A stretch of 64,000 nucleotides of DNA from Heptranchias perlo (GCF_035084215.1 NC_090334.1:65720001-65784000); one strand, 5' to 3'. Numbered from the stretch's first letter, positions 11,013 to 38,039 are shown. Notes: generated from the sequence alone by a model not told the origin. Translations and numbers: made by a program.

Positions 11013-11055
11013 AGTTCACCTGAGGAAGGGGGAAGCCTCCGAAAGCTTGTGAATT
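11013..11055 (+). ncRNA. Minimal type I hammerhead ribozyme-like motif
   Basis: AGUUCAC-CUGAGGA-A-GGGGG-aag-CCUCC-GAAA-GC-UU-GUGAAUU; stems I and II can pair. Confidence 0.6.
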
Positions 11056-11104
11056 TAAAATAAAATTGCTGGACTATAACTTGGTGTTGTAAAATTGTTT
11101 ACAA
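11013..11104 (+). mobile_element. PLE (family A) 3'-terminal fragment with hammerhead motif
   Basis: Near-identical to the reverse complement of 16196-16285; ends at ...tgtttacaa like the other copies. Confidence 0.85.
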
Positions 11105-11423
11105 AGGTATGGGAATGCATTGTGAAAAAGTTAATGGTGACTCTTCCATTAAGCAGTAAAACCAGCATTGTTGAAAGAGGTTGAAAAATAAGCAGGGTGA
11201 AAGATAAGATAACCAGGGTAATGAAGCAGCTGGAGGCCTCCAGTAGCCTTCGCCCTCTCTCCTTCTGGTTTGACAGTTGAAGATATGGCAGGATTCTGGG
11301 AGAACCCCTGTGGACTTTTAGGGTCACCTTCTTTAACTTTACATGTAGCCCTTTACAATATGCCCTTTTGGGATGAATAGTTGATTATATACAAAAACAT
11401 ACCGAAAGTGTATTGAAGGTGAA

Positions 11424-11769
11424 TTTTTTTCATAAAATATACTTTATTCATAAAATTTGCAGCAAAACATACAATACAGTTGTTATATCATATTCCAAAT
11501 GTACACAATACAGATTATACAATTTGCAGGTTACATCAAGTACAGTTCAATGAACACATTGTACATAATTACAGTTCATGACACTCTGGGGTTCTCATTG
11601 CATTATACTCAACACAGATTATTGATTACAGATTCATTACAGGTACATTACAGATTCATTACAGGTACATTACATCAATGTGAATTTTACATTCTGCCCG
11701 GGGGGGGGGGTTTCCCTGATTGCAGCCCCTCGGTATACAATGGCGGGAACGCTCTAAATGGTTGCCTTT
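11424..11769 (-). mobile_element. L1/Tx1-like LINE 3' end
   Basis: Minus strand ends aataaagtatattttatg plus poly(A); atttt duplicated at 11423 and 11770 at a TTTT/A site; internal 21-bp tandem duplication. Confidence 0.6.
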
Positions 11770-13182
11770 ATTTTACCTGCAGAGATAGGTGCCAGGAATT
11801 TTCTCAGAACTGCTCGCTGTCTGCTGCCGTAACTTTGGCTGAAGCCCAGTTTACGTATGTAAATATGGTTTCCATCGCACTCTCAGCAAAGTTACATCGG
11901 TGGTGCATGAGCAGGTCTGAAGAAATTTCCAGACGGAGTCTAAACTGGAAGTGTCTGTCCCGCCCACTTTTTAAATTTTTCTCTTTAAAAATGAATCAGT
12001 TGAGTAAGAAAAATGGAGACTTTGACATCGCCATGATTAAGGGGCTAAAATACAATATAATTGCACCCATTTAGAAAAAGTACAGCAGAATAGCAAATAC
12101 AAGTATTGAATAACATTTGAAAGCACCAACTGAAGGAAATCCTCTCCTGCAATGGGCAAAAGTGCATGATTAACTGATTTCTGTGTGAGCTCAGGCATGT
12201 ACATTTAGAAATGCATTATCTTTATTTTGACCTCGTGGATCTTTCCTAAAGAATGTATTTGCCTGTTCCTTTTAAACCAATAACCTGTGTTAATTTAATG
12301 CATTCATAGTTTCTTTTCATTTATACATAAAATGATATCAGCTGTTGTTATATTAATGTCTCTACAATAGTTCATAAAGTAAATTAGCTTAACATTTTCT
12401 GAGGTAAACTTTATATATAAATTATGCTGCATATTTAAACTATACTTTAAACTTGAACATTTGCTTCATAGGAAAATAGTTGAAGCTTCTTAATTCGGCA
12501 AATTAAATAATTAGCTGATAATCATGACTGAACACTGAAACTGATTATTAGACTTCAGCAAAGTGTGTTCGTACGCAGAGCAACCACACACGCAGATATA
12601 TATAAATATAAAAATATATATTCCTCGCCTAACTTTAGTTTATGTCACAGAATACATTTCATAGCACTTTGTTTATTTTCTCTTAAATTGAAGCTTTTCT
12701 GTAGCCTGTCTCCCCCATGGAGATCACTGCAGAAATCTCAGAGGTGTTAAAAAACCGAGTATAGGTCAAAAATTGCTTGTTGGTTTTGATCTCCTGATGA
12801 TGCAATGATTGACAGGCTGGCTGTCTGCCGCACAGAAACAACTGAAAGGGAGCATTTGACAGAATGTCAAAACTTCGTGGCTCTGTACAGTTTTTAACCA
12901 TTTTCTCCTCCATGTCGGAAAATGATGTTATAGTTCCACAGTCGTTATGTAAAATAAAGTTGCAATCAAGAAGATCAACCGTGTTAAATGGTGCAGCAAC
13001 TTAGTTCGAATCAAGCAGGCAAATGTCAGGTCTGTTGGGAGCTCATGTATCGATGTATATTTAAAAATGGCTGCCCTCGAATAAAGATTTTCCAAATTCA
13101 CACATTTTCTCAGAGAATCTCAGAGGCTGTTTAGAAATTGTTATTCACACAAATAACATACAGCTCTTCAGTAAGTATAAGT

Positions 13183-13271
13183 TTTAGTGAAGGGTCTCCA
13201 ACTGAAACCTGAAGCTGTCTTTTCTCTTTCAGATGCTGGTTACTTCCAGAATTTTATTTTTTTTATTTTCA
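13183..13271 (+). mobile_element. Degenerate single arm of a PLE family B terminus
   Basis: gtgaagggtctccaactgaaacc...tctttctctttcagatgctg resembles 2860-2950. Confidence 0.45.
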
Positions 13272-13444
13272 ACTGTTACCAATAAATGTTGCTCATCCAG
13301 TCAGATTTGTATTGGGAGGCCAGATGACAGAGAGGTAGGAGAGTCGAGAGAATACAGAGGAGACCAGGTCCTCAGGAGAGCAGAAGACCGGATCCAAGGC
13401 AACGGTAATAAGGAGCACAAAACTCTAGCTCCCAGCAATGCTCA

Positions 13445-13800
13445 CTCACAGGACGTATGATCTACAGGATGCTCTGCAGCAAATCACCACAGTTACTTCA
13501 ACAGAGCCTCCCTTCCAGAACGTTCTTCCACCAAGAAGGACAAGAGCAACAATGCCGTGGGAACACCCCATCACCCCCAAGTTGCCCTCCAAGTCAAGCA
13601 CCATTCTGACTTGGACAATATATCACAGGTTCTTCATTGCCACTGGATCAGATCCTAGAATTCCCTACCTAAATCCATTATGGGAAGCACCATCATCACA
13701 GTGATTCAAAGAGAAGGCCCACCACCAAACTTCTCAAGGCAACCAGCAATAAATTTGGCCTTGCCAGCGTCATTCCAGTCTCAAGACCAAAAAAAAAGAC
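13445..13800 (+). mobile_element. Old LINE 3' fragment (same family as 29177-30027)
   Basis: tctacaggatgc...ccaagaaggacaagagc...gcaataaatttggccttgccagcg, A-rich end. Confidence 0.7.
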
Positions 13801-14049
13801 ATATAAAGGACTCAAAGCTCAACCGACCTAGAAACGAGTCACAATTTTTAAAGTAACTATAGGACCCTGTCCCTCCAAGAGGGGTATCAGTGGGCCTTCC
13901 GCCTCTGCCTCGGGTCCTCCCACTATCTCTCTCTCGGCAGTCCTTGGGGTTTGTAGAATCAGCAGATCAAGGCAGGGAAATGGTACAGCTTGCTGAGCCC
14001 TACCTCCCCGCCATCATGTTCAAATGATGGACGTCTAGCGGGGGGGGGG

Positions 14050-14912
14050 ACAGGGGAGAGAATAGAGGCTGGGATGGAAACGTGACAGGGTAGAATGGGG
14101 GTTGGGACGGAAACGTGGCAGGGTAGAATGGGGGTTGAGGCAGAACGTGACAGGGTAGAATGGGGGTTGGGGCAGAACGTGACAGGGTAGAATAGGGGTT
14201 GGGGCAGGAACGTGACAGGGTAGAATAGGGGTTGGGGCAGGAACGTGACAGGGTAGAATAGGGGTTGGGGCAGGAACGTGACAGGGTAGAATAGGGGTTG
14301 GGGCAGAACGTGACAGGGTAGAATAGGGGTTGGGGCAGGAACGTGACAGGGTAGAATAGGGGTTGGGGCAGAACGTGACAGGGTAGAATGGGGGTTGGGA
14401 CGGAAACGTGACAGGGTAGAATGGGGGTTGAGGCAGAACGTGACAGGGTAGAATGGGGGTTGGGGCAGAACGTGACAGGGTAGAATGGGGGTTGGGGCAG
14501 AACGTGACAGGGTAGAATAGGGGTTGGGGCAGGAACATGACAGGGTAGAATAGGGGTTGGGGCAGGAACGTGACAGGGTAGAATAGGGGTTGGGGCAGGA
14601 ACGTGACAGGGTAGAATAGGGGTTGGGGCAGGAACGTGACAGGGTAGAATAGGGGTTGGGGCAGAACGTGACAGGGTAGAATAGGGGTTGGGGCAGGAAC
14701 GTGACAGGGTAGAATAGGGGTTGGGGCAGAACGTGACAGGGTAGAATAGGGGCTGGGACAGAAACGTGGCAGGGTAGAATAGGGGCTGGGGCAGAACGTG
14801 ACAGGGTAGAATAGGGGCTGGGGCAGAACGTGACAGGGTAGAATAGGGGCTGAGGCAGGATTGTGATGGGGTAGAATAGGGGTTGGGGCAGGAACGTGCT
14901 TGGGCAGGGGTA
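14050..14912 (+). repeat. G-rich minisatellite, 32/33-bp unit, about 26 copies
   Basis: Unit gtgacagggtagaat(a/g)ggggttggggcag(g)aac. Confidence 0.95.
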
Positions 14913-15399
14913 GACTCCAACTTCTCCCTCTTTGTCGCAAGCTTCCTTATCTTTCTTTGTTTTATTGATACAATTATTGTCAGTGCTCCTCTGAGCTTTC
15001 CTTTCTTGCATCCCCTAAGCTCCAAGTGCACAAGTCTACACAGTCCTCTTGCATCCTCACTGTGTTGAAATCAAGGCACATCATTCTATCTACCATTTAA
15101 ATCCATTCCTTCCCAAAACAACAACACTTCCATTGTGCTTTTAACATAGCAAAATGTGGCAAAGTATTTGTCAAAAATGGGGCTGAACCAACACAGAACA
15201 ATAGTTAGGAGAAGAGTTAGTGGAGATGAAGGTGAGGTTGAAGAGGTAGGTTTTCAGGGGGCTTTTGATGGTAGGAAGAGGTGTAGAAAGGCCTCAAACC
15301 TTTGGAACTCCTTACATTCCTCAATCTTCTCATTAAACCCATTAAAATTAACAGGTCAAGATATAGACTTGGGGAGAATTTGTTGATCACTTGTTAAAG

Positions 15400-16080
15400 G
15401 CGTACAAGTAGTCTGAGGTGGCTATTGGGAAAGCAAATAGAGTTTTGGGTTGTATTGCTACGACCAGTGCATACAAAATGAATGAGGTTACATAAGACTC
15501 TAATAAATCTGCATTAAAGTCCTATGTCAAGTTTGGTCCCTGCACATAATGAAGGATATCAAGTTTCTGGAGAGTTGCAGAGAAGGACAATCAGGATGAT
15601 ACCAAGTCTTATAGCTCTTAATTATGAGGATAGGCTACAAACGGTAAGACTATTTACTTTGGAGAAACACAGATCTTGAGGGATATGATTGAAATATTTT
15701 TAATGATATGAAGAATTTGGATTCAGTCCAGTTAGATAGGTTATTTGAAGTGGAGAGGCATCGTAGATTGAGAGGCCATGCCTAATAAATCCATTGCAAA
15801 GAGCTAGATTAGATTCTAGAAGTATTTATTTTCAAGAGAGTCATCACTTTCCAGTTATAGAAGGTAAGTCACCACTTAGTTGAATCATGGAGCTTATTTG
15901 ATTATGTTTGGGAGTCAAAGGTGAAATTTGCAGTTTTTTCTGGATTATCTGCTGATATTTTGCTCTGATCTTTTACTTCTTCTAGAAAGCATGATTAGAC
16001 TGCATGAATGATGTGCAAGGTTGTGCCATTGACTGGACGGAGCAGGCTTGATGGAACTGATTGCCTTTCCTTACCCTTCC
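15400..16080 (+). mobile_element. Ancient, highly decayed CR1 3' fragment
   Basis: Residual aaagcaaatagagttttggg, aaggatatc...ggagagttgcagagaagg and ttatgaggataggct motifs. Confidence 0.55.
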
Positions 16081-16244
16081 TTTTGTACATTCATTTCCTT
16101 CTGAAACCTAAAGGTTTTTAAAACCCAAGCTTGCCAGCGTCTAACAGTACTTCTTAATTTAGCTCATCTTTTCTCCTGCTCCCTTCAATATCAATTGTAA
16201 ACAATTTTACAACACCAAGTTATAGTCCAGCAATTTTATTTTAA

Positions 16245-16285
16245 ATTCACAAGCTTTCGGAGACTTCCTCCTTCCTCAGGTAAAT
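16245..16285 (-). ncRNA. Minimal hammerhead ribozyme-like motif in the PLE 3' terminus
   Basis: AUUUAC-CUGAGGA-A-GGAGG-aag-UCUCC-GAAA-GC-UU-GUGAAU, in the same sense as the PLE ORF. Confidence 0.65.
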
Positions 16286-16530
16286 GTTTCAGGAGCTCCT
16301 TGAAGCCTACGCATTTATACATATAGAACAATACATGGTGTTTACAGACTGCCCCTGCAACTGCCCGTTGCCAAGGCAATCACCGTGTTCAGACAGAGAG
16401 GTGTCACCTGCAGAACCCCCGAATACACATTCAACAAAAAAACAAACAGGGAAAAAAAAAACAGAGAAAAAAAACAGAGAGAGGCAGAAACATCCGGAAG
16501 GCAGAGAGAGCCAGCAAATGACCCATTATA

Positions 16531-18031
16531 TTAAAAACAGATAACATTTGTTCGCTGGTGGGGTAACGTGTAGCGTGACATGAACCCAAGATCCCGGTTG
16601 AGGCCGTCCTCATGGGTGCGGAACTTGGCTATCAATTTCTGCTCGACGATTTTGCGTTGTCGTGTGTCTCGAAGGCCGCCTTGGAGTACGCTTACCCGAA
16701 GGTCGGTGGATGAATGTCCATGACTGCTGAAGTGTTCCCCGACTGGGAGGGAACCCTCCTGTTTGGCGATTGTTGCGCGGTGTCCGTTCATCCGTTGTCG
16801 CAGCGTCTGCATGGTCTCGCCAATGTACCATGCTCTGGGGCATCCTGTCCTGCAACGTATGAGGTAGACAACGTTGGCCGAGTCACAGGAGTATGAACCA
16901 TGCACCTGGTGGGTGGTGTCCTCTCGTGTGATGGTGGTATCTGTGTCGATGATCTGGCATGTCTTGCAGAGGTTACCGTGGCAGGGTTGTGTGGCGTCGT
17001 GGACGCTGTTCTCTTGAAAGCTAGGTAATTTGCTGCGAACGATGGTCTGTTTGAGGTTGGGTGGCTGTTTAAAGGCGAGTAGTGGAGGTGTGGGGATGGC
17101 CATAGCGAGGTGTTTGTCCTCATTGATGACATGTTGAAGGCTGCGGAGAACATGGCGTAGTTTCTCCGCTCCGGGGAAGTACTGGACGACAAAGGGTACT
17201 CTGTTGGTTGCGTCCCGTGTTAGTCTCCTGAGGAGGTCTATGCGATTTTTTGCTGTGGCCCGTCGGAACTGTCGATCGATGAGTCGAGCGTCATATCCCG
17301 TTCTTACTAGGGCGTCTTTCAGCGTCTGTAGGTGTCCATCGCGTTCCTCCTCGTCTGAGCAGACCCTGTGTATTCGCAGGGCCTGTCCATAGGGGATGGC
17401 CTCTTTGACGTGGTTAGGGTGGAAGCTGGAAAAGTGGAGCATCGTGAGGTTGTCCGTGGGCTTGCGGTAGAGTGAGGTGCTGAGGTGCCCGTCTTTGATG
17501 GAGATTCGTGTGTCCAAGAAAGAAACTGATTCTGAGGAGTAGTCCATGGTGAGCTTGATGGTGGGATGGAACTTGTTGATGTTATCGTGTAGTCTCTTTA
17601 GTGATTCCTTGCCGTGGGTCCATAGAAAGAAAATGTCGTCGATGTATCTGGTGTATAGTGTTGGTTGGAGGTCTTGTGCAGTGAAGAAGTCCTGCTCGAA
17701 CTTGTGCATGAAAATGTTGGCGTATTGGGGTGCGAATTTGGTCCCCATGGCTGTTCCGTGTGTTTGGGTAAAGAACTGGTTATCGAAGGTGAAGACATTG
17801 TGATCCAGGATGAAGCGGATGAGTTGTAGGATGGCTTCCGGAGATTGGCTGTTGTTGGTGTTGAGTATTGATGCTGTCGCAGCGATGCCGTCATCGTGGG
17901 GGATACTGGTGTATAGTGCCGAGACGTCCATCGTGGTGAGAAGTGTTCCTGGTTCAACTGGTCCGTGGGTACTGAGTTTTTGTAGGAAGTCTGTAGTGTC
18001 GCGACAGAAGCTGGGGGTTCCCTGTACGATG
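16531..18031 (-). CDS. PLE polyprotein (partial): reverse transcriptase plus GIY-YIG endonuclease, Neptune-like Cys linker
   Basis: About 500 codons with no stop: TMDVSALYTSIP, GTAMGTKFAPQYA, RYIDD, FLD, LYRKPT; linker CHGNLCKTC; VVYLIRC..C...YIGET..R...H, E...GLN. Confidence 0.9.
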
Positions 18032-18742
18032 TCAATATCAGTGGTGCCCTGCACCATGGGCTTCTGCCTAGGCTTAGGAATTTAAAAATATAGCAATTGC
18101 CTAGGGACGGATCTCAGAATATAAAGACACGGTCTCTTTCTATTTAAAAACCCTTTTCTTTCAAACGTACTTCTCCGGTTAGTAGCGCTAAAGAACTAAC
18201 CACCCCATTCCGCCTACACAGAGTTTTTTTTCCCCCATCAAAGAGCAATACTGTTTGTTTTTAAAACTCTGTCAAAACATAATAATGCCTGTCAGTCATG
18301 CCTACACCACAGCTGTGACTTGCGTTATGGGGCACTGCAGCTTTAAGCTAAAAACCTGCCTTCTAAAAATAATAATTAGAAGATGCCTAATCTAAACTGA
18401 TCGCTCCAGGTATTTACAGGCCACTGACAGGAGTAATAAACTGTATTTTGTGAGACATTTTAAAGCATACTGTTTGTTTTTTTTTGGTCAAAGCAACGCT
18501 GACACTCGAAAAATATTTCCTACAATTATTTCCGAGTTAATTGCTCAGGCACCAACCTAAAAGTACAAATGATTAGTTTTGGAAGATTAATCGAATAATA
18601 AACATGGGCAAAAATGGAAGGCCCAATTGAGGTTTCACCTCCTACTCTGCGACAATCTTCTGATCTCTTCAACTTATGGTCGATACTTTGGTCAGATAAA
18701 ACTTTTGGCGTAAGAGGTCATAGAATGACTGCACCAAACGTG

Positions 18743-19768
18743 TGAAGGGATTCGCAAAATTTCACATGTCCACCCCCCCACCGAAGATTTTATTGGAGTT
18801 ATTAAAGAAACCCTGGTGTGACTGTTTTAAAAAATCCAGGGTCTCTCAAAATGGCTGCGGTCAGACACATGGCCTAAAAGCCTGCAGCATTCTCTAACAA
18901 CTTGGCAGGCTTCGTGTTTCAGACAGGTTTCTTTAAACAATGCAGTTGCATTCAAGCCCTGAGGCAAGCTATCAACATGGCCGGCCAACACATCAAAATT
19001 CGAGCAGGAGAAATTCCAGGACAAAAGATAAACCATCAAGGAACGTTCGGAACAATGGTAAAGCAGTTATGGAACAGATCAGTACAGGAAACGGCCATTA
19101 TGTAAATAGGCCAGAAATGAGGTCCTTTGTCTTACGTTTTCGTGCTTAAATCAAACAATGAAGCAAGCTGATGAGGTACGAAAAAAACCTGTTACCAAGA
19201 GGGTATAACTGGTGACTTCCCAGTATCTCTCTCTCTCTTCTCTCTTCGCCTGGTGGCCGGGGTCCTGCTGCTTGCTAGCAACCAAGAAGGAAGGCCATCC
19301 AGTAAACCTCGTAAACACATGTCGACGGCAGCAGCAGGAGGCCAGGCCTTTTCATCTGTTTCACCGGTGAGCATTAATTTTCTGGCCGCCACAAGACAAC
19401 CTCGCATAGGTCTAAGGGTGGGGGTTAAAGGGGATATTGCTAAACTTGTGATTTTAGAATTTTCCCTCGATGTGTCCGTTTCTTCCACCCCTTAAAGTGT
19501 AAGACTGTATTGTATCTATAGCGATTTCTTTATCTTCTGTATAATACTGTTTACCTTGTAGTTTTAGTTTTCTTATTAATAAACATTGGTTTTCCTTGTA
19601 CCGATCCACTGGTCTGTTCGTCTGTCCTTGTTACCGCCCGATAAGTCCTCAGCTCAGAATCAGGAAGGGGAAAGCGATTCGCAACCGCACAGCGGGCAGG
19701 GCAGCTCAGGAAAAACATAACTGGCTGACCTATAATAAGCCCGAGAAACAGTAAAAAAAACCCTTACA
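18743..19768 (+). mobile_element. Solo LTR (ERV or Gypsy type)
   Basis: TG...CA termini with short inverted ends (tgaaggg / cccttaca); 4-bp TSD cgtg at 18739-18742 and 19769-19772; TATA-like gtataa ~19203 followed by a CT tract; aataaa ~19578. Confidence 0.7.
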
Positions 19769-21611
19769 CGTGCAAATGCAGCGCTACATATAAGCAATTC
19801 ATCAAATAAGCTAGCAGATGGCTACAAATGGCCTACGGATCAAAGGTATTATTCAAAGCAATCAATCAAATTGTTAATACACGCTCAGCGCCTTCAAAAG
19901 GTTTCTTTCATATTTTCAGGTTGTCAATGTTTCTTGTTCTGTATTTTTTTGCAGATTTTTTTTTTCGAGCAAACACCATTTAATTTAGCTGTTGCATACA
20001 CAAACACAAGGCAGATGTCAAGTCATCACAAAGCTGGGAGAGGAAAGAGGGAATGAGACAGAATTGGAGCAAATCTGGGAGGAGGCACAGCAGTCAAAGC
20101 TGGACCATGACTGGGACATGCAGAAGTGAATGGTCCCAAGCTTGACAGTGAAAGAAAGGCCTAGATACAAAGACAAAGTGGACCAATTATCGATTTTTTT
20201 TTCCAGATTGGCCAAAGGGCCTGTTGATCCTAAGGCAATGGATATTCTGCAACATAAATATTAGTTCTATATTTGGGGACTTGAGAATGGAATGGGGAGG
20301 AGTATAGTAAATACTTGGGTGCTTTATTTAGTAAATTTAGGAAAATAAATAATTGCATCCTGCTAAAGCGGCCCATTTAATAGGCTTGAAGTTTCAACTC
20401 CATTAATACGTGCTCAATCTCCAGCGACAGCTAACATGTAAAACTGTCATGCACACATGCTGAACTTCCTTGGGAGAGAATATATATTCTGTTAGCATCT
20501 GCACAAAACAGCAATGCTATAAGTGGTCTCCTGTGTCACTGCTTCAAAGTTATTCTGTTGGGTAGTGTGGTGCCACGAGAAGCATTGTCAACATCGATGC
20601 AAATTTCCACTTATGTGCACTCTTGACACTATTGTGCTCTCTTTGACGTGCTGGAGAAAAGCAGTCAAAGAAATTGCTTTTTATGGTTTGGCCTTTACTG
20701 CTGCTTCTGTGTAAAATTTATATTTCAAATTGAAAAGAACGTTTAATGTTTAAATGCTGTTTTCTGTTTTTGGCCATTAGGTATAGGAGCACTTCTTACT
20801 GTTTATGGTGAATGCAGTACAAATTAAGTAGCGCCTCTCTTAACCCAATATCGACTTATCTGGACTGCTAGGTCAATACCAGTATGATAATAATAAACTG
20901 TAATTGAATGTAATATGTGGTGTTTGACTGTGAGCAAACTGATTTTCTTGTCTCTACGCAACCTGTACAGAGGAGCAGTAAAATCCTGCACCATGCACGA
21001 GGTGGAGAGGGGTAGGTGGGAAATGGAACATATAATTTTTGATGGCATCACTTAACAGTACTTCTTGTGCAGGTAATAGTGACCTTGCTCTGCGATACCA
21101 ACCTTCTCAGTATAAAGGGAGCTAATAGAGGAGAGCTGTGTGGAAGAATGAAGAATTTCTGCATGTATGGATGTCACGTGAGGACCTGATCAAGCTCAGC
21201 TGCGATACCATCCATGGTCGAGCAGCCTGCTGCCACTCACCGTCAAGGCTCAAGTCTTGCAGGAAATATATCTTAGCCCTGAAATTCTGCAGGGCTACCA
21301 ACAGTCTTCCCTCTCTCATGGGTTTCTGCTGGTCTCCTGCTGATGTTATGTTGGGAGTCCAGTGGTCTCTGTAATCAATAAGCAGTATTGGGTCCCAAGT
21401 ATAGGTTTCTTTTAGAAAGTTTAAAAATATTATTTAACACAAAATGCAGATTATACAAGAAGCTTGCAACTTGTAAAGCAGAATAATACATTTTGCATTA
21501 CATGATATAATGTTCCTGGCCTTATCAAACAGCATTTCTTCTGACTCATCGAAAGCAGTGCCATGAGAATCTCCTTGTATTCATGAATATTTAAATATTA
21601 ATTCTGAGACC

Positions 21612-21915
21612 TTGAACCCAGGCCCTGTCTGCCCTCTCAGGTGGACGTAAAAGATCCCACGATGCTGAAGAAGAGCAGGGGAGTTTTCCCCGGTGTCCTG
21701 GCCAATATTTATCCCTCAACCAACACCTACAATAGATGATCTAGTCATTTATTTCATTGCTGTTTGTGGGAGCTTGCTGCACACAAATTGGCTGCTGCAT
21801 GTCCTACATTATAACAATGACCACTTCAAAAGTACTTCATTGGCTGTAAAAACACTTTGGCACATCCTGAGGTCCTGAAAGGCGCTATGTAAATGTACGT
21901 TTGTTGTTTCTTTCT
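21612..21915 (+). mobile_element. DeuSINE (SacSINE1-like) 3' part with L2-type tail
   Basis: Deu-domain-like ggccctgtctgccctctcaggtggacgtaaaagatccc...ggtgtcctggccaa; tail aaggcgctatgtaaatg. Confidence 0.75.
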
Positions 21916-22156
21916 TTACCACACTAAATTATTGCAGGCATAGTTGTTATTTACATTACTATTAAGGGAGTAATTATCTGACTTTCTGTTCCTGGTGAGG
22001 TGCCTTGCATGCCTACAGCACGTATTAGAAAATCAGGCACTCATTGTGCATCACTTTCCAACTATTTAAATTAACAGTTGGATAAACCTGCAGCATCAAT
22101 GGGCAAGACTCCCTTCCAGGAATACAACATCAAAACATAACCCTTTAATGTGCGAA

Positions 22157-23395: not shown

Positions 23396-23432
23396 TATTG
23401 CAAAGTGTCTTATCAAAGGATCTTGCAAATAA

Positions 23433-23750
23433 AGTCCCCTGATGGCTCAATGGGCTTTCCAAGGAGTATTTGATCCATAAAATACAGAAAGATCTCAGAT
23501 TTGACCTCCAGTCTGGGCTGAGTTGGCTGCTCTCAGCCAGGGAGACAGTAGAGGCACTAAATGTGAGCCCAGTATCCTGGGTTAAGGAGGAAAAATTAGC
23601 CAGGGTTCCTGTACACTATCCAGCCACCCCTTTTGAAAGTATGCATGTATGAATGTTATGTGAAGACCTGATTGGACTCAGCTGTGATACCATTCATGGT
23701 TGACCAGCCTGATACCAAGTCACTGTCGAGACTCAAATATGAGTAAATGA
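23433..23750 (+). mobile_element. Old SINE-like repeat (related segments at ~21150-21250, 47290-47580 minus, 49060-49200)
   Basis: Shared core catgtatg.atgt..gtga.gacctgat...ctcagctg.gatacca; tRNA-like head gatggctcaatggg. Confidence 0.5.
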
Positions 23751-23874
23751 CTACTTGTTCGAGGTACTGGAGTGAGAGACCAGCATCTGCAGAAGCAACA
23801 AGGAGTTATGACCTCCAAGGGAAAAGGGGACGGGGAAAAAGATAACCACATGCCCAAGAAAAGAAAAAGAATGA

Positions 23875-26075: not shown

Positions 26076-27211
26076 TTTATGTTTAAATATACCTATATTT
26101 AAATTCAAAACAACATTATAATACTATAAATTAAACCCTTCCACTGAAAATGTTCATTAAAAAATGTCAATTTATGCTGAACATATATGTGCAGATGGCC
26201 CACACAAATCAATAAGGTGCCAGATAGGAAAAGAAAGAAAATGCAAAAGCCTCAGGACAATCGACCATTACAATACAAAAGACTTCCTGAGCTCATTGGA
26301 ATGCCCTGCCCTATCTACGTAGCATGACAGGAACATGGCAGGGACATTAAACCAAGAGCACTGACTGCTCGCATACGACAGGGCCAAGGTCAACAAAACT
26401 GCCCTCAATTTAAAACCCAGTAGGACTTGTTAAGCTCTTAAATTCTGGGAGATAACAAAGAACCACAAGAGTGTTGCTTAGGGGAAACAATTTCCTGCTG
26501 TCTGCCAAACCACAAAGTCAAATATATTTTAAAAAAATCGTCCTGACATACCACATGAAATTAGTGTGGTCGAATGATCCACATCTCCCTAAATCATGAA
26601 GTAAAAGATTGCCACTTGCCATAAAATTAAATGTAATGTTGCCCAAAGCCTAAATTAATTTTCTCTGCACCTACCCCAAATGAACAGTCAGTTATACAAT
26701 AAGTATATGGATCCACGGTCCATATACTTCAGATATGGCTGACTGCAGTGGTCATTTGGCAACTAATTTCAAATTAAACAAAGGCACTATCCCAAACATC
26801 CAACATAAACTTTCTTTTACCCCATTATCATTTGAAGTACCTCTGTTTATAATCCTTACAGCCAAGGTGTATATCTGACAATATAACAAGCCTCATATCT
26901 ATCCATAAATTACTTCATGTGCTGGCTGCCAAAGCTACAACCAAGCTCACCTTATAATTAATGTGCGATCTATGATCAATCAATCTTAAATAAAGCCAGT
27001 CACAACAAGTCCCTCCACTATCTCAGCATATATATCAGTATAAATCATAACTGTAGGTGCTTTATCTAAAAGAACAGATTTAACATTAATCTAACCCAAG
27101 AATGAATCTCCTTAAACAACTGAAATAAGCCAGAGAGAGGTATGAAAGAAAGAAAACCTTGGATTCATATAGCACCTTACCATGTCTCTCAGAAATGTTT
27201 TCAAACACAAT

Positions 27212-27977
27212 GGGCCGGAAAGTGCTTAAAAAAGAACAGTGAGCTCAACACCACTCTGCGTGTTAGTGGCGAAATCGAGGAGCAAGTTCCAGCGTTCGCA
27301 CATGCACAGTAAAACACGGAAAACAGGAACATGCTCCTCCTGGTTCAACGGTGATATGACAGCTTTGCATTAAAGGGAGACCGCCTGCTGGAATCAGTAG
27401 AATCAATGGACCAGTGCCAACTTGCTCTTCTGCCCAGCTGGAAAGTAATTAATTTTGCCCCAAAACAGCTACGCTTAAAAATACCAGGTCTAAACTAAAT
27501 TTTAACAGCGTGGTATGTCTTAATGGCTGCCAAACAACTAAAAATCAACTTTTAAAAATGTGGAGTCTCATTACTCATTATTTTAATAGTTTTTGGACAC
27601 TAAAAAAAATTTGAAATTAAAAAATTATTTTTTAAAAAACTTTTTCCTTCTGTCTCTTTTATTTAATATGATTATTTCTTACCCTCTCTTTTTTCGCTGT
27701 CTATAACTGTTTTTATAAATGTTTTTAATGTTGTACCTTTCACTTCCTGGATTTCATGTTACAGCTTGCAGAAACCCTTCGCAGTGTGTCAAAAAATGCT
27801 GCAATCTGATTGGTTGAGGGGAGAGATCGATCCTCTCGCTTCTCCCATGGGTCCTAGCTTCTCTGGAGTTAACGCTGGGCTCATCTCCGCTCCCTGTTAG
27901 AGGACGTGCACCCAGTAAGTAAAAATCTATGGAGCGGCGAGCACTGTTGATTCACCGCTCAGAGCAATTTCTGGGCC
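27212..27977. mobile_element. Non-autonomous DNA transposon (Harbinger-like TIRs)
   Basis: gggccggaaagtgct ... agcaatttctgggcc; AT-rich centre; splits a SINE. Confidence 0.6.
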
Positions 27978-28092
27978 ACTGAATTGCTTTGAAATGCAGT
28001 GACTGTTGTTATACCATAAGCCATTTTCTACACGAAGAGTTGCACAAACAGCAATGAGATGATTGACCAGTTAATCTGCTATTGGTAGAGGA

Positions 28093-28169
28093 TTGTAAAC
28101 AATTTTACAACACCAAGTTAAAATTGTTTACAATTGTCAACCCCAGTCCATCACCGGCATCTCCACATC
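28093..28169. mobile_element. PLE family A mini-insertion, collapsed palindrome plus tail
   Basis: Same start (ttgtaaacaatttt) and tail (gtcaaccccagtccatcaccggcatctccacat) as 37805-38039; 12-bp TSD attggtagagga at 28081-28092 and 28170-28181. Confidence 0.85.
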
Positions 28170-28489
28170 ATTGGTAGAGGAAGGAATGCTGTTCATGACT
28201 CCTTGAGAACTCCTTGCTCTTCCTGAAATAGTGCCTTTATAATCTTGAGCGTCCTCATGAATTGTTAAAATAGACCTTGGTTTAAGATCTCATCTGAAGG
28301 GCAGCACCTCTGACAACATGCCACTTGTTTGCTACTGTGATGTAGTGTTGACCTAAATTATGTCTTGATGAAAAGCCCAGAGCCTTTGATCCGGAGGCCA
28401 GAGGGCTACCAATTGAGTCAAGCTTACATTAAAGCTATTAATAGCATTTATACTACAGTAAAGAAAGCCACACTTCCCATAATTCATGT

Positions 28490-30652
28490 TCAAAAACATG
28501 AGGGGTAAAATTAAAAAGGAAATTAGGTAAGCAAAGAGATAGCATGAAAAAATACAGGCAAGTAAAATCAAGGAAAACCCAAGGATGTTTTATAAATGCA
28601 ATAAATACATAAAGAGCAAAAGAATAACTAAGGAAAGAGTAGGGCTTATTAGACACCAAAAAGGTAATCTATGTATGGGGCAGAAGATGTGGGTACGGTT
28701 CTTAATGAATACCTGTCTTCACAAAAGAGGGGTACGATGCAAAGATTATAGTTAAGGAGGAGGAGTGTGAAATATTGGATGGGATAAACATTGCGAGAGA
28801 GGAAGTATTAAGGGGTTTATATATATATTACTAAAGGTCCCTTGCTTTTTGTGGTATATATTAATGATTTGGACTTGAATGTAGGGGGCATGATCAAGAC
28901 GTTTGCAGATGATACAAAATTGGTTGTGTGGTTGATAGTGAGGAGGAAAGCTGTAGACTGCAGGAAGGTATGAATGGACTGGTCAGGTGGGCAGAAAAGT
29001 GGCAAATAGAATTCAATCTGGAGAAGTGTGAGTGAATGCATTTGGGAAGGGCAAACAAAGCAACGAAATACACAATAAATGGGAGGATACTGAGAGGTGT
29101 AGAGGAACAGAGGGACCTTGGAGTGCACGTCCACAAATCCCCAAAGGGAGCAGGACAGGTAGATAAGATGGCTAAGCAGAACGTGCCTGCATTCAGCAAG
29201 ACCTGGACAACATCCAGGCTTAGGCTGATAAGTGGCATGTAACATTCGCACCAGACAAATGCCAGGCAATGACAATCTCCAATAAAAGAGATTCTAACCA
29301 CTTCCCCTTGACATTCAACGGCATTACCATCGCCGAATCCCCCACCATCAACATCCTGGGGTTCACCATTGACCAGAAACTTAACTGGACCAGCCACCTA
29401 AATTCTATGGCTACAAGAGCAGGTCAGAGGCTGGGTATTCTGTGGCGAGTGACTCACCTCCTGACTCCCCAAAGCCTCACCACTGTCTACAAGGCACATG
29501 TCAGGAGTGTGATGGAATACTCTCCACTTGCCTGGATGAGTGCAGTTCCAACAACACTCAAGAGGCTCGACACCATCCAGGACAAAGCAGCCCGCTTGAT
29601 TGGTACACCATTCACCACGGTAAACATTCACTCCCTTCATCACCGGCGCACTGTGGCTGCAGTGTGCACCATCTACAGGATGCACTGCAGCAACTTGCCA
29701 TGGCTTCTTTGACAGCGCCTCCCAAACCCGCGACCTCTACCACCTAGAAGGACAAGGGCAGCAGGCACATGGAAACAACACCACCTGCACATTCCCTTCC
29801 AAGTCACACACCATCCTGACTTGGAAATATATCACCGTTCCTTCATCGTCGCTGGGTCAAAATCCTGGAACTCCCTTCCTAACAGCACTGTGGGAGAATC
29901 TTCACCACACGGACTGCAGCAGTTCAAGGAAGCGGCTCACCACCACCTTCTCAAGGGCAATTAGGGATGGGCAATAAATGCTGGCCTTGCCAGCGACACC
30001 CACATCCCATGAACGAATAAAAAAAAAGAAGGCATACGGGATACTTTCCTTTATTAGCCGAGGTATAAAATATAAGAGCAGGGAGGTTATGCTAGAACTG
30101 TAGTTAGGCCACAGCTTGAGCACTGCATACAGTTCTGATCACCACATTACAGGAAAGATGTGATTGCACAAGATAGGGTACAGAGGAGATTTACGAGGAT
30201 GTTGCCACGGCTGGAGAATTTTAGCAATGAGAAAAGTTTGGATCAGCTGGGATTGTTTTCTTTGGAACAAAGGAGGCTGAGGGGAGATTTAATTGAAGTG
30301 TATAAAATTATGAGGGGCCCAGATAGAGTGGATAGGGAGGACCTACTACCCTCAGCAGAGGGGTCACTGACTAGGGGGCATAGATTTAAAGTAATTGGTA
30401 GAAGGAATAGAGGGGAGCTGAGGAGAAAATTTTGATGGGGGTCTGGAACTCACTGCTTGAAAGGGTGGTAGAGGCAGAAACCACAACTCATTTAAAAAGT
30501 ACTTGGATGTGCACTTGAAGTGCCGTAACCTACAGGGCTACGGTCCAAGAGCTGGAAAGTGGGATTAAGCTGGATGGCTCTTTTTTGTCCGGCACGAACA
30601 TGGTGGGCCGAATGGCCTCCTCCTGTGCCGTAACTTTCTATGATTCTATGAT
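28490..30652 (+). mobile_element. CR1 LINE with an internal deletion (~28817-28836) and a nested LINE
   Basis: KYIKSKRITKERVG pre-RT region joined through a (TA)n patch to GPLLFVVYIND...FADD; C-terminus 30160-30435; (attctatg) tail. Confidence 0.85.
29177..30027 (+). mobile_element. Second non-LTR family (CR1/L2 group) 3' fragment nested in CR1
   Basis: ORF 29269-29712 (ILGFTIDQKLNWTSH...YKAHVRSVMEYSPLAW...IQDKAARLI); ends cccatgaacgaataaaaaaaa; host CR1 resumes at gaaggcatacggg. Confidence 0.85.
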
Positions 30653-31900
30653 CTAAGAATGAGGCCAGCACTCATGAGAATATATGGGTCATTTTTTGAG
30701 TATGCAGTAGCGATGGGGAACCTTGCTTCCTGTCAATGCATATCAGAAAATTGCTGGCATGCCGCCCATATCCCTGAAATTCCACATGGGTCCTCCCAGT
30801 CTCCCACTTAACTCCAACCGGAGATTGATGCAACCCCCAGGGAAACTGCATAGAGCCGTTTTCAAACATTTATATTGTTTCCCAGCGATTTCCAACGGTC
30901 TCCTGCTGGAATTGCAGTGGGAGGCCGGGAGAAGCCCCATGAAATTTTAGGGCCACTATTTTCTGTCTATCTACTCTGTATACAACCTATAATGTCAATG
31001 AGGCCATCGTGTTGCCATACCATGATACCATGTTTCTTTATTACAACTGCATTGAGGCAGGTTAACCATGGTTCCACTGACATGTTGTTCTATTTGTCAG
31101 ACATCACCATTTCCCAGTTGGGAGGAGAAGGTGATTTCTCCACCAATGTTAAGTGGATGCATCTGGGGGGAGTTCCTGGGCTATATCAGGAATTATGCCC
31201 ATTCAGCCCTTATAAGGCCACAGTAAAGCTTTTGCCAGCACATGCTCCAAACCTTTAGGAGACAACGGTAATAAACCCTGGAAGGGCTTAATTACCTTAT
31301 TTTAAATTAATCCAGGCTCTTATTGTAGCTAAAGACGTCTTTGGTCCAGGAAAGGCCTTGGAGCAGCTCAAATGGAGCAGCTGTGGGCCACTCCATCTTA
31401 TAGTTTGGGACGGAGTCTGGGAAGTGTCATGCTTGGGCAGACAGGGGCTTCCACTCCACCACACTTGCACTTGGCACGGGGCCCCAGGAATTTCAGGCTG
31501 ATTTGCATGTATGAATTATTTCAAATTCATTGAGCACTAGTAAGCAGCAAACAAAAACATAGATGGAAGGAGGTGGGCAGTGTAAGAGTTAAATATATAA
31601 AATATTTAGAAATCTTTATACCGTACACCCCTGAATAGTCAGGAGCATTGCTTGCTGGTGAAAGCCTCAAATACTCTGGTCAAGTCAACAGCAAAAGAAA
31701 TATGTATGATCCCTGGCCGTGGATGTGTGTTTTGTTTTTAACAATTTGCCGTTTTATGATCAGTGGCTACCAAATAGACGATTTATTTTTTTGTGGTGCT
31801 AGGCTTTAAGGTGAAGATTAAAATCAAGAACTATGTTGGTCTCACAATGACTTTGTTGTTAAGGGCAGTCTGATTGAAAATACTGTGGAATCTATGTTCT

Positions 31901-32525
31901 AGGGGATTCTACAGCCCCCATATTTACGGGAAGGCAGGAAGGGTGCGGGGAGCGAGTCTAAAACGCGGAAAGCCCCAGGACGCGATTTGGCAGGACCTCA
32001 CTAACATTAGATTGACAGGCTGGCCAGCCGTCAGCGGGAAAATCAACGGCAGGAGGCCACAGCTGGGGACTGTAGGGGATTGGGGCTTGGTGGGGGGGTG
32101 TGAGTCAGAGTCCGGCAGCGAGGGGAGGCCACAATCGATAGAACGGAGGCCGAAGGCTTCCTTGAGGGGCCAAGGGGAGCAATCCTGCTCCTTCTGGTCC
32201 ACAAGGAGTGCTATTAAAAGCACTAACCTGCTGGAGCCAGCAGCAACCATCTCCATTTTGCTGCTGGGTTTCCCGCACCCTGGGAAACCTAGCTGGCAAC
32301 TGTTAAATTTAAATCAGGCTCCCAGCTGCACCGTGAGAGCCTGATTTAAATATGATAATGAAGTGTCCCACCTCTCCAAAACGGAAGACTCACGCAGCAT
32401 GCAAACCGCGGACGTAAAAATGGCGGCAGGGACGCGTTTCCCGATTTTTAATTTTTAACCCCCCCTCCATCCACAACACACTCCCGCCCGTCGTGCAGGG
32501 GTGTGGGTGGTTAATATCATGGCCT
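31901..32525 (+). mobile_element. GC-rich non-autonomous DNA transposon (relative of 7727-8588)
   Basis: Shared blocks gattgacaggctggc, ctgctccttctggtccacaagg, aaagcactaacctg, ttttaatttttaacccc. Confidence 0.55.
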
Positions 32526-34084
32526 ACGAGTTTCTAGAGTGTAGTTTCTTCCACACACTTTATAGATCAGCAAATGCCTCACAATTTTATAAACATGAGA
32601 GAGAACTTTAAGACTACACAGATCTCAGGGAATTATACCTGCAAAGTACTGTAAAATTATAAAAAGTGAAACTGTAATTAATGAAATAATCTTTGAACTA
32701 GTTACTTCAGTCAAATAAGCTTTGCATTGATTTGTTGATCCCAGTCGAATTTAAACAATACAAGACAAGATGTGAAGTAATGTTCCAAAGGAACAAGAAC
32801 TTCATCTAGGTTATTGACTCACTGCTCTTACACATACAGCAGCTAATGCAAAGGCATCTCATCCAGGGTCTGGGTGAGAGTTGTTTATTGCTGAAGGTTC
32901 CTCATGTGCAAACTATCACAGCTTCATTCCTGGCTCCAAACACAAATACGCTCTGAGGTCGGGGGTGGGGGAGGGAGCAAGGTTGAATTCTGTTTGGATT
33001 CCCATCGGGCATGAGACAGTGATGTTGTGTGATTTCTACATCAGCAGATGGTTGATAGCGCTTTGAATGTTTGTTTCATGCTACATGGAAATTACCTCAT
33101 AACAAGAAGCATCTGGTCATGTTTCCAATTTTCTAAATTGACAACAGTGGAGTCAAACCTGTGCACAGAAAATTAGAGCTATCAGGCGCCTGAATATAAA
33201 TACTGACTTTTAAGCATTTTTACTTTTCAAACATAAATTTGGTCATTAGTACCAAATTATAGAAATTTGATAAACTCTATTGATGCAATTAACATAAATA
33301 ATTCCATCTAATCTGCTTATATTTGCTTTCTCTCATTACATTTATTATTCTATTTGAATGTTTATAACTATGTTCATTAGCCTTTTCTCATTCAATTGAG
33401 GAGTGTATTCAGGGTTTCTGCATTGATATATTTACCCCAGTTGTGAAGCTCCAAGGTAATTTTGTGCTGTGTGCACATACCCAATGGGACTGGAATAAAA
33501 CTGCCTGAAATTATTTTGCTTAAAACCTATAATAGCTACCAAATAAAAGCACAGTTTCACACTAGTGTTTGAAGTCAGTGCAAACGGTAAATCCCAGATA
33601 CGAAAGGGTAATGTTCCCCTGTAGACTATGGCAGTAAACAGATCTTCGAGCCCATTATCTTCCCAACATCTTTTAACAAATAACATTGCAACTTTTTTTC
33701 TTAAAAAGCTTACTCAAATAAATATTATATATTTATTCTGTACAGGGGTGGGCTTAACTCTGAAAGTAAACCATCTGCAGAATTTTTATTAATTAGCTAT
33801 AAAATGAATACCATTAATCACTTATTTCACTTATTTTCACTTATTTCCCTTCAAGTAAAATTAGAATGCTTCTTTCTATCGAAAATCGTGATCTTAATTC
33901 CTCTTACCTTTCATCTGGAATTCACCTTTCCATTTTCACAGGTCAATTATGCACACAGTTTGCTCCAACTCAAAGAGCTTTTGCCTACATAAATTGTGTA
34001 GTATACCTTGAGATGATAAGAGTAATTCCAACTGGTACAACATGCAATGCAAAGTTTGCAGAGTTCATTACAGTGCCTGGAAAC

Positions 34085-35250
34085 TTTTAAACTTTTTTTA
34101 TCCATTGGTTTTTTATCCTTTCTATAATGGAGTGCCCGAAACTGCACACAATATTTCAACTGCAGCCTAATTAAGGTTTTGTGTGTGTTCAACATTACCT
34201 CTTTGTTTTTGTATTCTATACCTGTAGATATAATATCAAGGTTTCCTTTTTTATGGTCTTACGTTCTCGTTTCTACTTTTAATGACCTGTTTATCTGCAT
34301 ACCAAGGAACCTCTTTTCAACTTCATTTAAAATGTTACCATTTAAAGTGCATTCCTTTCCCTATTCTTACTTCCAAAATGTGTTGTTTCACATTTTTCTC
34401 CATTGAACTGTATCTGCCACCTATCTGCACACCCCGTTAGTCTATCTCTGTCCTCCTGCAGTCATCACAATTCTTGTCATCATTTGCCACATCCCTCGCT
34501 TTGATGTGCTAAAAAAATTCAATATTGTTCCCTTGACTACTCCAGATCATTTATATATATAGTAAAGAAAAGCATTACCAACACAGACCCCTGTGAAATA
34601 TAACTCACAATATCTTTCCAGTCTAAAAACCTTCCACTTGCCCCTGCCCTTTGCTTTCCTTTCACCAATCATCTCTTTATCCATGTGGCCACGTTCCCCT
34701 TAATTCAATGTGTCTTTACTTATGCCACAAGTTCTTTATCTACTCCCTAATCAAATGCTTTCTCCAAGTGTTTAATAATTTCATCCTCTATTATAGAGTC
34801 TTGTAAGCTACCAACAACTGGAGTAAGACTAATTGGCCTGTAATTTCGTGCTTCATCTCTGTCTCCTTTTCTGATGTGGATTCCACCTTTCCCTCTAGGT
34901 ATCTGGCACAGTTTTTCTTTCCACAGAACAATGGAAAATTATAGTCAGAACCTTTACTATCTCTCCCCGGGCTTCACTTGGGATCCTTGGCTGTGAACCA
35001 TCAGGTTCTGGTGATTTCTTTATCTCAAATGTGAGTGTCCTCCTTAGCACCTTTTGTCTTTGAATTTACTAATTGTCCTAATCCACGTCTGGTGGTTCTA
35101 CAATCTAAATATCCACCTCCTCTCAGGCAAAGCACTTAATTAGTATTTAGTTTTATTTACTTATTTAGTATCTCTGTCATCTCCTCATCTCTTTCATTTC
35201 ACAAAGATTCTACCCCTACGTTGACTACCTCTTATTAACATGCATAAAAG
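34085..35250 (-). mobile_element. Ancient CR1 ORF2 fragment
   Basis: Minus-strand LIRLQLKYCVQFRALHYRKD (ORF 33947-34195) and further decayed RT-like sequence. Confidence 0.65.
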
Positions 35251-37804
35251 ACATTGTTTGTCTCCTTTCTGCTTTTTGCTACTTTTCTCCAATACTCTGC
35301 CTTAGCTTTTTTAATCCCCATCATTGTCGCTTTCCCATCATTTAAGGCCCTAAATTTTCACAGGGCCAGTGGCGTACACCCACTAAGGAAGTCGGCTAGG
35401 AATGCAGCATTGCCTCTAGAAAAATTGGCTAGAATCCGGATATGTCAGGTCTGAATCCACACAATGAGTTTCCATTGGGTCCTGTTTAGGGCAGGACCTC
35501 TGCCTGCATCAAATGTGGTCCATTACATTGGAGGGGGAAGGGGAGGAGCAGGGGCCAGGACCGGGGCCGAGGGAGGGAATTCCCATGCCAGGAATTACCG
35601 CAGCCCTGGCCTTCCTAACACCAATGACTAGATGCCGAGATGAACCAGACGTATAGGTCTACTCAGTAGTGCAAATGGGGCCCACCTAGGGGTCCAGGCC
35701 TGAATCCTGCCCTACCCCTAATCAAAATCCACCTCCGTTTTCACTATTGGCCTCCTTATAAAGGGGCCCAATTGAGAATGCACAAAAGGTGCTGGCACAT
35801 CAACAGATAGCATGCTGGCACTGCCTTCCCTACCCCTCTCCCTGTAGCTCAAGACGCATTAACAGTGACCCAGGTTTCCACCAATTCCAAACAATTTAGG
35901 TGACCTTCATGATCCACTCTGGTAGGATCAGGAGCAAAGGTAACTGACATCCACTCGATTGCAATTCTGCTGGCAGAACGAGATTGAAATTTTCTACCCC
36001 TTTATAATTATGATCTGCTCTGTGAGTGTTAAATGCCACTCTGTCCATTTTCAAATTGATCAAACGTTTTGACACATTCCCTTCATTCTTTACTGGAGTA
36101 CACTTGATTTGTATATTTTCCATCTGTGGGTTAAATATCTCCCATTTGCTCATCCACGGTTATATTTGCCAATTTTATTTTCCATTTTATTTCACTATAT
36201 TTAGCTTTCATCCAGCCATGTCCTCAACTTTTCTTTTCCCTCTTTATTCTTATGCTGATCCTATTTATATTGTGGTCACTATTTTCCAATTGTTCTCCTA
36301 TCTTGTGGTCACCCACTTGCTCTGTTTCATTACCCGGAACCAGGTCAGGCAATGCTTCCTTCCTTGTTAGAGCAGTAACATAATGACTAAGAACACTGTC
36401 CTGAACACACTGCAAACTACCTCCCCTTTCTCACCACATTTTCCTTATACCAGTCTTTTTTTTGGATTGTAAAAATTTCCTACAGTGGAGGGAAGTTAAT
36501 GGTGAGGGAGAGGCTTGGTCTCCAGTGAAAAAATAATATCTGTGCTGATTGGAGCTGCCCCCATGTTGGGCCGGAGTGAAGTGATGGGAGGAGGTATTGG
36601 TTTGTGATGTGTTTATTTTCTCTTCCATATAAATAAACCTCTACTGTTAATACATGCCTCTCTAATTTATGCCTCAGGTCATCTTCTGCTGAAAGCCTCA
36701 TCCATTTTTTTGTTACCTCTAGACTTGACTATTCCAATGCTCTCCTGGCCAGCCTCCCACCTTACACCCTCCATAAACTTGAGTTCATCCAAAACTCTGC
36801 TGCCCATATCCTAACTCGCACAAAGTCCCGTTCACCCATCACCCCTGTGCTCGTTGACCTATATTGGCTCATGGTCCAGCAACGCTTCGAATTTAAAATT
36901 CGCATCTTCATTTTCAAATCCCTCCATGGCCTCGCTCCTCCCTATCTCTGTAACCGCCTGCAGCCTTACAACCCTCTGAGATCTCTGCGCTCCTCCAATT
37001 CTGGCCTCTTGCTTATCCATGATTTTACTCACTGCACCATTAGCATGCGTGCCTTCTGCTGCCTTGGCCCTAAGCTCTGGAATTTCCTCCCTAAGCCATC
37101 CACCTCTCCACCTCTCTCTCCTTCTTTAAGACGCTCCTAAAAAACTTACCTTTTTGAGCAAGCTTTTGATCACCTGTCCTAATATCTCCTTACGTGGCTC
37201 AGTGTCAAAATGTGTTTGATAACGATCCTATAGAATCATAGAAAGGTTACAGCCTGGAAGGAGGCCATTCGGCCCATCAAATCTATGCCGGCTTTCTGCA
37301 AGAGCAATCCAGCTAGTCCCGCTCCCCCGCCTATCCCCATAGCCCTGCGATTTTTTTCCTTTCAAGTACTTATCCAGTTCCCTTTTGAAAGCCATAATTG
37401 AATTTGCCTCCACCGCCCCCTCAGGCAGTGCATTCCAGATCCTAACCACTCGCTGTGTAAAAAGGTTTTTCCTCATGTCACCTTTGTTTCTTTTGCCAGT
37501 CACCTTAACTCTATATCCTCTGGATCTTTACCCTTCTGTCAATGGGAACAGTTTCTCTCTATCTACTCTGTCTGGACCCTTCATGATTTTTAATACTTCT
37601 ATCAAATCTCCTCGCAACCGTCTCTGTTCCAAGGAGAACAACCCCAGCTTCTCCAGTCTATCCACGTGACTAAAGTCCCGCATCCCTGGAATCAATCTAG
37701 TAAATCTCTTCTGCAGCCTCTCCAAAGCCTTCACATCTTTCCTAAAGTATGGTGTCCAGAACTGGACACAATACTCCAGCTGTGGCCAAACCAATGTTTT
37801 ATAA

Positions 37805-38039
37805 TTGTAAACAATTTTACAACACCAAGTTATAGTCCAGCAATTTTATTTTAAATTCACAAGCTTTCGGAGATTTTCTCCTTCCTCAGGCAAATGTTTC
37901 AAGATCTTGAAACATTTGCCTGAGGAAGGAGAAAATCTCCGAAAGCTTGTGAATTTAAAATAAAATTGCTGGACTATAACTTGGTGTTGTAAAATTGTTT
38001 ACAATTGTCAACCCCAGTCCATCACCGGCATCTCCACAT
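37805..38039. mobile_element. PLE family A mini-insertion: perfect palindrome plus tail
   Basis: 37803-38006 is self-complementary around aga|tct; tail to 38039; 12-bp TSD aatgttttataa at 37793-37804 and 38040-38051. Confidence 0.9.
37914..37954 (+). ncRNA. Minimal hammerhead ribozyme-like motif (mirror copy 37855-37895 on the minus strand)
   Basis: AUUUGC-CUGAGGA-A-GGAGA-aaa-UCUCC-GAAA-GC-UU-GUGAAU. Confidence 0.6.

Follow-up and report, generated by a model that had tools for sequence, protein, structure and literature searches.

Which RNA does a retroelement copy into DNA when its transcript carries a hammerhead ribozyme, the cut or the uncut one? This question is raised by four hammerhead motifs in a stretch of 64,000 nucleotides (nt) of the Heptranchias perlo genome (GCF_035084215.1 NC_090334.1:65720001-65784000; the whole stretch is hereafter called the window), all of which lie in insertions derived from a Penelope-like element (PLE). 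Hammerhead function has been called unclear for PLEs (PMC8557442). We consider it likely that the motifs are the minimal hammerhead ribozyme (min-HHR) of the terminal repeat of an abundant Neptune-type PLE, that this ribozyme would cut only slowly and with help from a partner RNA or from the element's protein, and that the RNA retrotransposed by the element was mostly uncut.

The motifs are located as follows.
11014..11054, plus strand: copy 1, minimal type I; predicted cut 11048/11049
16245..16285, minus strand: copy 2, in the 3' pseudo-long terminal repeat (pseudo-LTR); predicted cut 16251/16250
37914..37954, plus strand: copy 3; predicted cut 37948/37949
37855..37895, minus strand: mirror arm of copy 3; predicted cut 37861/37860

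In copy 1, 11014-11019 pairs with 11049-11054 to form stem I, and a seventh pair is available at 11013/11055. Re-reading of the sequence returned all four motifs at the positions given by an earlier, sequence-only reading, together with the same variants of stems I and II. Cleavage after CUU is a prediction.

Genomic copies and the predicted cleavage site

Pattern matching in the 3.25-Gb genome found the exact motif core at 43,338 sites and a downstream anchor at 61,611. The full unit measures 3,081 bp, occurs in tandem and follows the order TATA box, hammerhead, 92-nt leader, ATG, open reading frame (ORF), 3' region and next hammerhead, with the predicted cut 92 nt before the ATG. The single, open ORF of 902 amino acids (aa) has an RVT_1 match plus, at its C terminus, a GIY-YIG endonuclease with a Cys/His motif. 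The endonuclease, which gave no direct Pfam match of its own, was called from its motifs and from its alignment with a relative that is itself GIY-YIG-positive in Pfam. Between the reverse transcriptase (RT) and the endonuclease lies a CX4CX2C linker, which fits the CX2-5CxxC definition of the linker that marks Neptune and Nematis PLEs (PMC8557442). Tandem and inverted arrangements with an optional tail were both seen in this family.

If cut RNA served as the template, short insertions would begin on the base after CUU. To avoid bias towards an intact core, copies were sampled through the downstream anchor (the first 100 of the 61,611 matches, 91 after removal of duplicates, 69 of which span the whole motif). 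The predicted cut is crossed by 84 of the 91 copies, and none begins on it. Genome-wide, 70 starts were counted at +1 versus 70 at +2 with filters of equal acceptance, corresponding to ~160 of an estimated ~42,000; these counts cover +1 and +2, and the controls -1, -2 and +3 come from a by-eye list only. Neither the 91 sampled copies nor the genome-wide +1/+2 counts thus display a marked footprint of cleavage in copy ends, which suggests that the RNA copied into DNA is usually not cut by the hammerhead. Since cut RNA would lose its cap and might not be mobilized, the end counts limit the templates and not cleavage itself.

A comparable situation has been described in vitro for a lizard PLE, in which the tail is defined by two sites within the RNA where reverse transcription begins, cleavage is protein-dependent and uncut RNA is the dominant substrate (PMC11167929). 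The present family of more than 60,000 copies offers a countable in vivo read-out, in which most templates appear uncut and probably begin just upstream of the ribozyme. This read-out is in line with that single in vitro study and speaks against a need for cleavage in insertion.

Copy starts and the TATA box

Where the copies start was analysed by counting positions from the first T of the TATA-like box. Among the 91 sampled copies, 27 end at +24..+33 compared with 5 in the 10 nt upstream (p = 1e-4), and 21 extend beyond 300 nt. A truncation filter retained 2,362 copies of subfamily C; the first 30 scored include 15 that end exactly at +31 and 8 partner arms at +36. Of the 3,704 copies passing in subfamily A, 29 were scored, with none at +25..+29. 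Relative to the cut, the upper edge of the ends lies at -46 in subfamily A and at -39 in subfamily C, and since this distance differs, the edge follows the TATA box and not the ribozyme. Additional runs of A or T, found by eye at subfamily C and A ends, fit slippage at a template end. In a distant PLE family, stem I likewise lies 30 nt after a TATA box. Transcription typically starts ~30 nt from a TATA box. The pile-up at 30-31 nt is likely the transcription start, and the copies ending there are likely run-off cDNA.

We rejected a splice acceptor as the cause of the pile-up, as no AG precedes the site in subfamily A or C. In subfamilies B and C, which have a hairpin upstream of stem I, the RT could stall there, but subfamily A has the same upper edge without the hairpin. 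Known PLE promoters vary, with a TATA-less promoter in Penelope of D. virilis (PMC2377424) and a putative TATA plus initiator (Inr) in a rotifer PLE (PMC3846280). A literature search found no work on genomic PLE copies whose ends lie at a TATA-defined position, although subscription papers and unseen supplements could hold one.

Taken together, the following mechanism is proposed. Transcripts would start 30-31 nt past the TATA box, with the cut 39-46 nt further downstream. The RT would initiate internally, ~57 or 92 nt past the cut, as seen in vitro for the lizard PLE, and would run off the RNA 5' end, giving the many copies of ~100-135 nt; alternatively, on a tandem transcript, it would copy the whole unit. 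Cleavage, when it occurs, would leave the mRNA without its cap and shorten tandem transcripts to the length of one unit. The hammerhead would accordingly act as a processing or off step rather than as an obligatory step of insertion.

An opposite role for the ribozyme is given by the cleavage-circularization model proposed in PMC4209133, in which successive hammerheads would dimerize and excise a unit-length RNA that circularizes, and the RT then passes over the resealed junction. Cutting at two successive motifs would free exactly one 3,081-nt unit with its ORF intact, and long copies and tandems span the junction, as a circle permits. Furthermore, in the distant, subtelomeric PLE family, 29 of 29 matches have a junction at which the repeat restarts exactly at the predicted cut. 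These 29 junctions are, however, one sequence and likely reflect a single inherited event. A circle would also have no end near TATA+30, yet this is where the 27 sampled copies stop. Obligatory cleavage and re-ligation therefore seems unlikely to us as the general route, and a circle is possible for the 21 long copies.

The hammerhead fold and its conservation

A structural descriptor consisting of the core, a stem II of 4-9 bp and a stem I of at least 4 bp matched the 64-kb window exactly four times, at the motifs listed above, and zero times in each of 100 dinucleotide shuffles. Thirteen further loose core matches in the window fail this descriptor and were rejected. Folding of the monomers recovered stems I and II at -9 to -13 kcal/mol. 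The Rfam covariance models gave no hammerhead match in the window at E<=1, and a PDB search gave no significant match. Rfam microRNA models over 37840-37969 were rejected, as they match a perfect hairpin far below their gathering scores.

All core bases are present (C3 U4 G5 A6 N7 G8 A9, G12 A13 A14, A15.1, U16.1 and H17), with N7 as the sole recurrently variable one and U at H17. Helices I and II, the extra base after A9 and the G10.1-C11.1 pair are found in the Neptune-type family as well, whereas a stable helix III is absent and positions 15.2-16.2 are palindromic (AGCU in the window family). The min-HHR of metazoan PLE pseudo-LTRs has the same conserved core, extra base between 9 and 10.1, G10.1-C11.1 pair and palindromic 15.2-16.2, the same location and mostly solo genomic copies (PMC4209133). 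Every sequence feature given for this class in the available text is thus present here. On the strength of the core, the stems and the pseudo-LTR location, the motifs are genuine copies of the min-HHR fold already known from PLEs, as the sequence-only reading had proposed. What is new is another PLE family with a known kind of min-HHR; the motif itself is ordinary for PLEs. The 5-bp stem II described earlier is correct for the window copies and does not extend to the whole family, as the pair that closes the loop is an A.C mismatch in one recurring subfamily.

The sequence-only reading had also placed the fold under selection in the active lineages. Inserted copies decay neutrally, and therefore only variants common to many copies report on those lineages. 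The three window copies alone are weak evidence: their stems differ at six positions, all by transitions, of which four are informative, and because half of all transitions in a Watson-Crick pair leave the bases paired, the chance for four such changes is ~0.06. Stronger evidence came from the 69 anchor-found copies spanning the motif. None of the 15 core positions shows recurrent variants, defined as present in at least 3 copies, compared with 12 of the 26 others (p = 0.0014); the variable positions include N7 (G/C), and one of the 12 is likely CpG decay. G5, G8 and G12 are invariant in this sense. In a set of 17 haplotypes (16 of the 22 listed recurrent haplotypes plus window copy 1), 95.2% of cells are paired, a value reached by 2 of 500 shuffles, and the covariation score was reached by 19 of 500. 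Three of the 11 stem pairs changed on both sides, with wobble intermediates present for all three. All 79 copies with a changed G15.2, ~0.2% of copies, carry uncompensated single changes.

The strongest evidence for a kept fold is the distant PLE family, which at 33% protein identity has the same core with unrelated stems of 7 bp and 5 bp, another palindrome (ACGU) and a GUC site; covariation is strong only across families. Combined with the contrast between core and non-core positions, this makes selection on the fold in active lineages likely. A purely neutral pattern, in which the subfamilies are too close for stem changes to carry meaning and the ribozyme is a decayed passenger, would suit the finding that all informative stem changes are transitions, the modest within-family covariation and the U at H17. 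Among the bases allowed at H17, U is the weakest. This explanation leaves both the core contrast and the fold kept at 33% identity unaccounted for, and we regard it as very unlikely.

Inverted insertions

Ninety-three inverted pairs were collected from fetched loci, which are not a random sample. Exactly one tail is present in 86 of them, none in 5 and both in 2. The arms differ in their motif in 10 of 50 pairs, three of these at the subfamily-polymorphic N7. These pairs fit two priming events, sometimes on two RNAs.

An arrangement of this kind could mean that the motif is kept mainly as structure, with the AGCU palindrome and the stems pairing two RNAs for a protein dimer, or stopping the RT, and thereby giving twin-primed inverted insertions. 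The prevalence of exactly one tail and the differing arms, which suggest two templates, speak for such a role. In the energy model, the trans double fold (-13.7 kcal/mol) is no more stable than two monomers (-14.6 kcal/mol), and therefore help would be needed. Pairing alone, however, does not demand the invariance of the catalytic G5, G8 and G12, the stop position tracks the TATA box, and Naiad PLEs form inverted insertions without canonical hammerheads (PMC8557442). A mainly structural role is thus improbable, if somewhat less so than a neutral passenger. Dimer cleavage through the mirror arm, another possibility, failed on inspection: within a single transcript this arm is antisense and draws the motif into a hairpin of 102 bp, which rules it out as the dimer partner.

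Several observations weigh against our preferred reading of a selected ribozyme in a Neptune-type PLE with mostly uncut templates. In the by-eye list (100 of 761 rows), 9 starts fall at +1 versus 5, 3, 3 and 2 at the neighbouring positions (nominal p = 0.02), and a small excess of starts at the cut is possible. The ends in subfamily A are not sharp and spread over +30..+42, and older subfamilies carry a degenerate TATA. Taken alone, the double changes within the family lack significance (47 of 500 shuffles; p = 0.16), and the subfamily with the mismatch in the last stem II pair also has its stem I shortened to 4 bp. The downstream leader is roughly as conserved as the core, and conservation by itself therefore does not point specifically to catalysis. 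In five inverted pairs, both arms have the G15.2 change, which fits one source or later homogenization. Finally, the family was assigned to the Neptune type by motif rather than by tree and is to that extent a putative member.

A broader joint reading is possible, and we put it forward tentatively. The genome would be a fossil 5'-end map of PLE RNA, in which the mini-copies, numbering tens of thousands, represent run-off cDNAs from a capped leader with the hammerhead as its first structure, and at most ~0.5% derive from cut RNA. The ribozyme would be a cap-removing off-switch that is inactive in the transposing particle, and insertions would be twin-primed from two RNAs under a fixed long-arm/short-arm rule. 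The same genome would also house an undescribed vertebrate chromosome-end PLE with an intact-looking endonuclease and one junction restarting exactly at the cut.

Insertions in the window

The insertions that carry the motifs have the following parts.
11014..11105, plus strand: solo PLE end fragment of 92 nt, from hammerhead to untailed end, without coding sequence and with no clear target-site duplication
16194..18031, minus strand: 5'-truncated PLE insertion with a 9-bp target-site duplication (16185-16193 / 18032-18040)
16531..18031, minus strand: uninterrupted C-terminal ~500 aa of the PLE ORF, with RT, CX4CX2C linker and GIY-YIG-type endonuclease motifs with Cys/His
16313..16319, minus strand: TATA-like box; the 31st base from its first T is 16289, the putative transcription start, 4 nt before stem I
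37805..38039, no strand assigned: head-to-head inverted mini-insertion, one arm untailed and one tailed, with a 12-bp target-site duplication (37793-37804 / 38040-38051)
38006..38039, plus strand: PLE tail of 34 nt, which in full units continues to the ATG of the next ORF

The start at 16289 was derived from the ends of genomic copies. The sequence-only reading spoke of three PLE copies. All are PLE-derived, but coding sequence exists only in the copy at 16.2-18.0 kb, whose RT matches RVT_1 at E=4e-10; copy 1 is the 92-nt fragment and copy 3 a 235-bp inverted pair within another LINE remnant.

Directly upstream of stem I, subfamilies B and C have a short palindrome (16290-16305, minus strand, in the window), inside which the window inverted pair is joined. 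An AATAAA lies ~10 nt past the predicted cut (11055-11065 and equivalents) and is a possible polyadenylation signal for upstream transcripts. Elsewhere in the window are a G-rich minisatellite (14049-14907; 32-33-bp unit, ~26 copies), a tRNA-like match above the Rfam gathering score that is likely the head of a short interspersed element (43053-43130, minus strand) and short inverted-repeat elements, possibly miniature DNA transposons (7268-7423 and 63592-63813).

Comparison with known elements

Min-HHR have been reported in Neptune and Poseidon PLEs of fishes (PMC4209133). The copy number here, with more than 43,000 exact matches, differs from the ~4,000 in coelacanth and ~9,000 in Xenopus given in the same source, in supplement files 2-3 of which no shark entry was found.

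Poseidon of Anolis carolinensis (PAc), the lizard PLE mentioned above, resembles the present element in its two end points defining the tail, the dominance of uncut RNA and the lack of RNA ends at the cut. In PAc, however, the cut lies 26 nt inside the ORF instead of 92 nt before the ATG, and in vitro there was no strand bias between the two RT starts, in contrast to the single tail of most inverted pairs here (PMC11167929). The Neptune/Nematis-type Cys linker of the Heptranchias element is a further difference from PAc.

The insertion unit of canonical, endonuclease-containing (EN+) Neptune-clade elements is alike in its partial tandems, its adjacent inverted 5'-truncated copy, its tail of 30-40 bp at one end, its target-site duplications of ~9-12 bp and its putative TATA plus Inr in the pseudo-LTR (PMC8557442, PMC3846280). 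Short copies ending at a TATA-defined position, as found here, are not described for that unit in the available text of these two papers.

Animal non-LTR retrozymes share the type I hammerhead and its derivation from PLE pseudo-LTRs and have been reported in one chondrichthyan, but they consist of short head-to-tail repeats with a ribozyme per unit (bioRxiv 10.64898/2026.07.22.740005). The window copies are instead solo or head-to-head, and the tandems seen are 3-kb coding units.

A second family at chromosome ends

The distant PLE family forms head-to-tail arrays of 7.4-8.7 kb near contig ends (C4:141.42-141.81 Mb, C1:198.12-198.27 Mb, C5:0.13-0.19 Mb, C9:89.32-89.38 Mb and others). It accounts for 86 of the first 100 of 650 matches in a search that gave 31 in the control. 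ORF1 (741 aa) has a weak SGNH/GDSL esterase-like match (E=0.011), and ORF2 has RT and GIY-YIG matches. Besides its own hammerhead, the family carries a degenerate reverse-complement telomere tract, and the junction restarting at the predicted cut is a 52-nt duplication. Vertebrate-type telomere repeats are present in the genome, and two truncated copies of the family are capped by perfect ones. At four arrays (C1 right, C4 right, C5 left, C9 right) the 5' end is turned towards the contig end, and at two arrays ~1 Mb inside (C1, C10) it points away.

The family resembles Athena-type end addition but retains the endonuclease. Esterase-bearing Neptune-like PLEs of fish are known (PMC5408684), and a limited literature search, including the available text of PMC10088271, found no telomere-associated EN+ PLE in a vertebrate. 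This family, which lies outside the window, could matter more than the motif, as a relative of telomerase RT that is associated with telomeres in a genome of vertebrate type. In a third family, dispersed and older, the minimal hammerheads have a CG palindrome, differ in stem II and adjoin a short shared repeat sequence.

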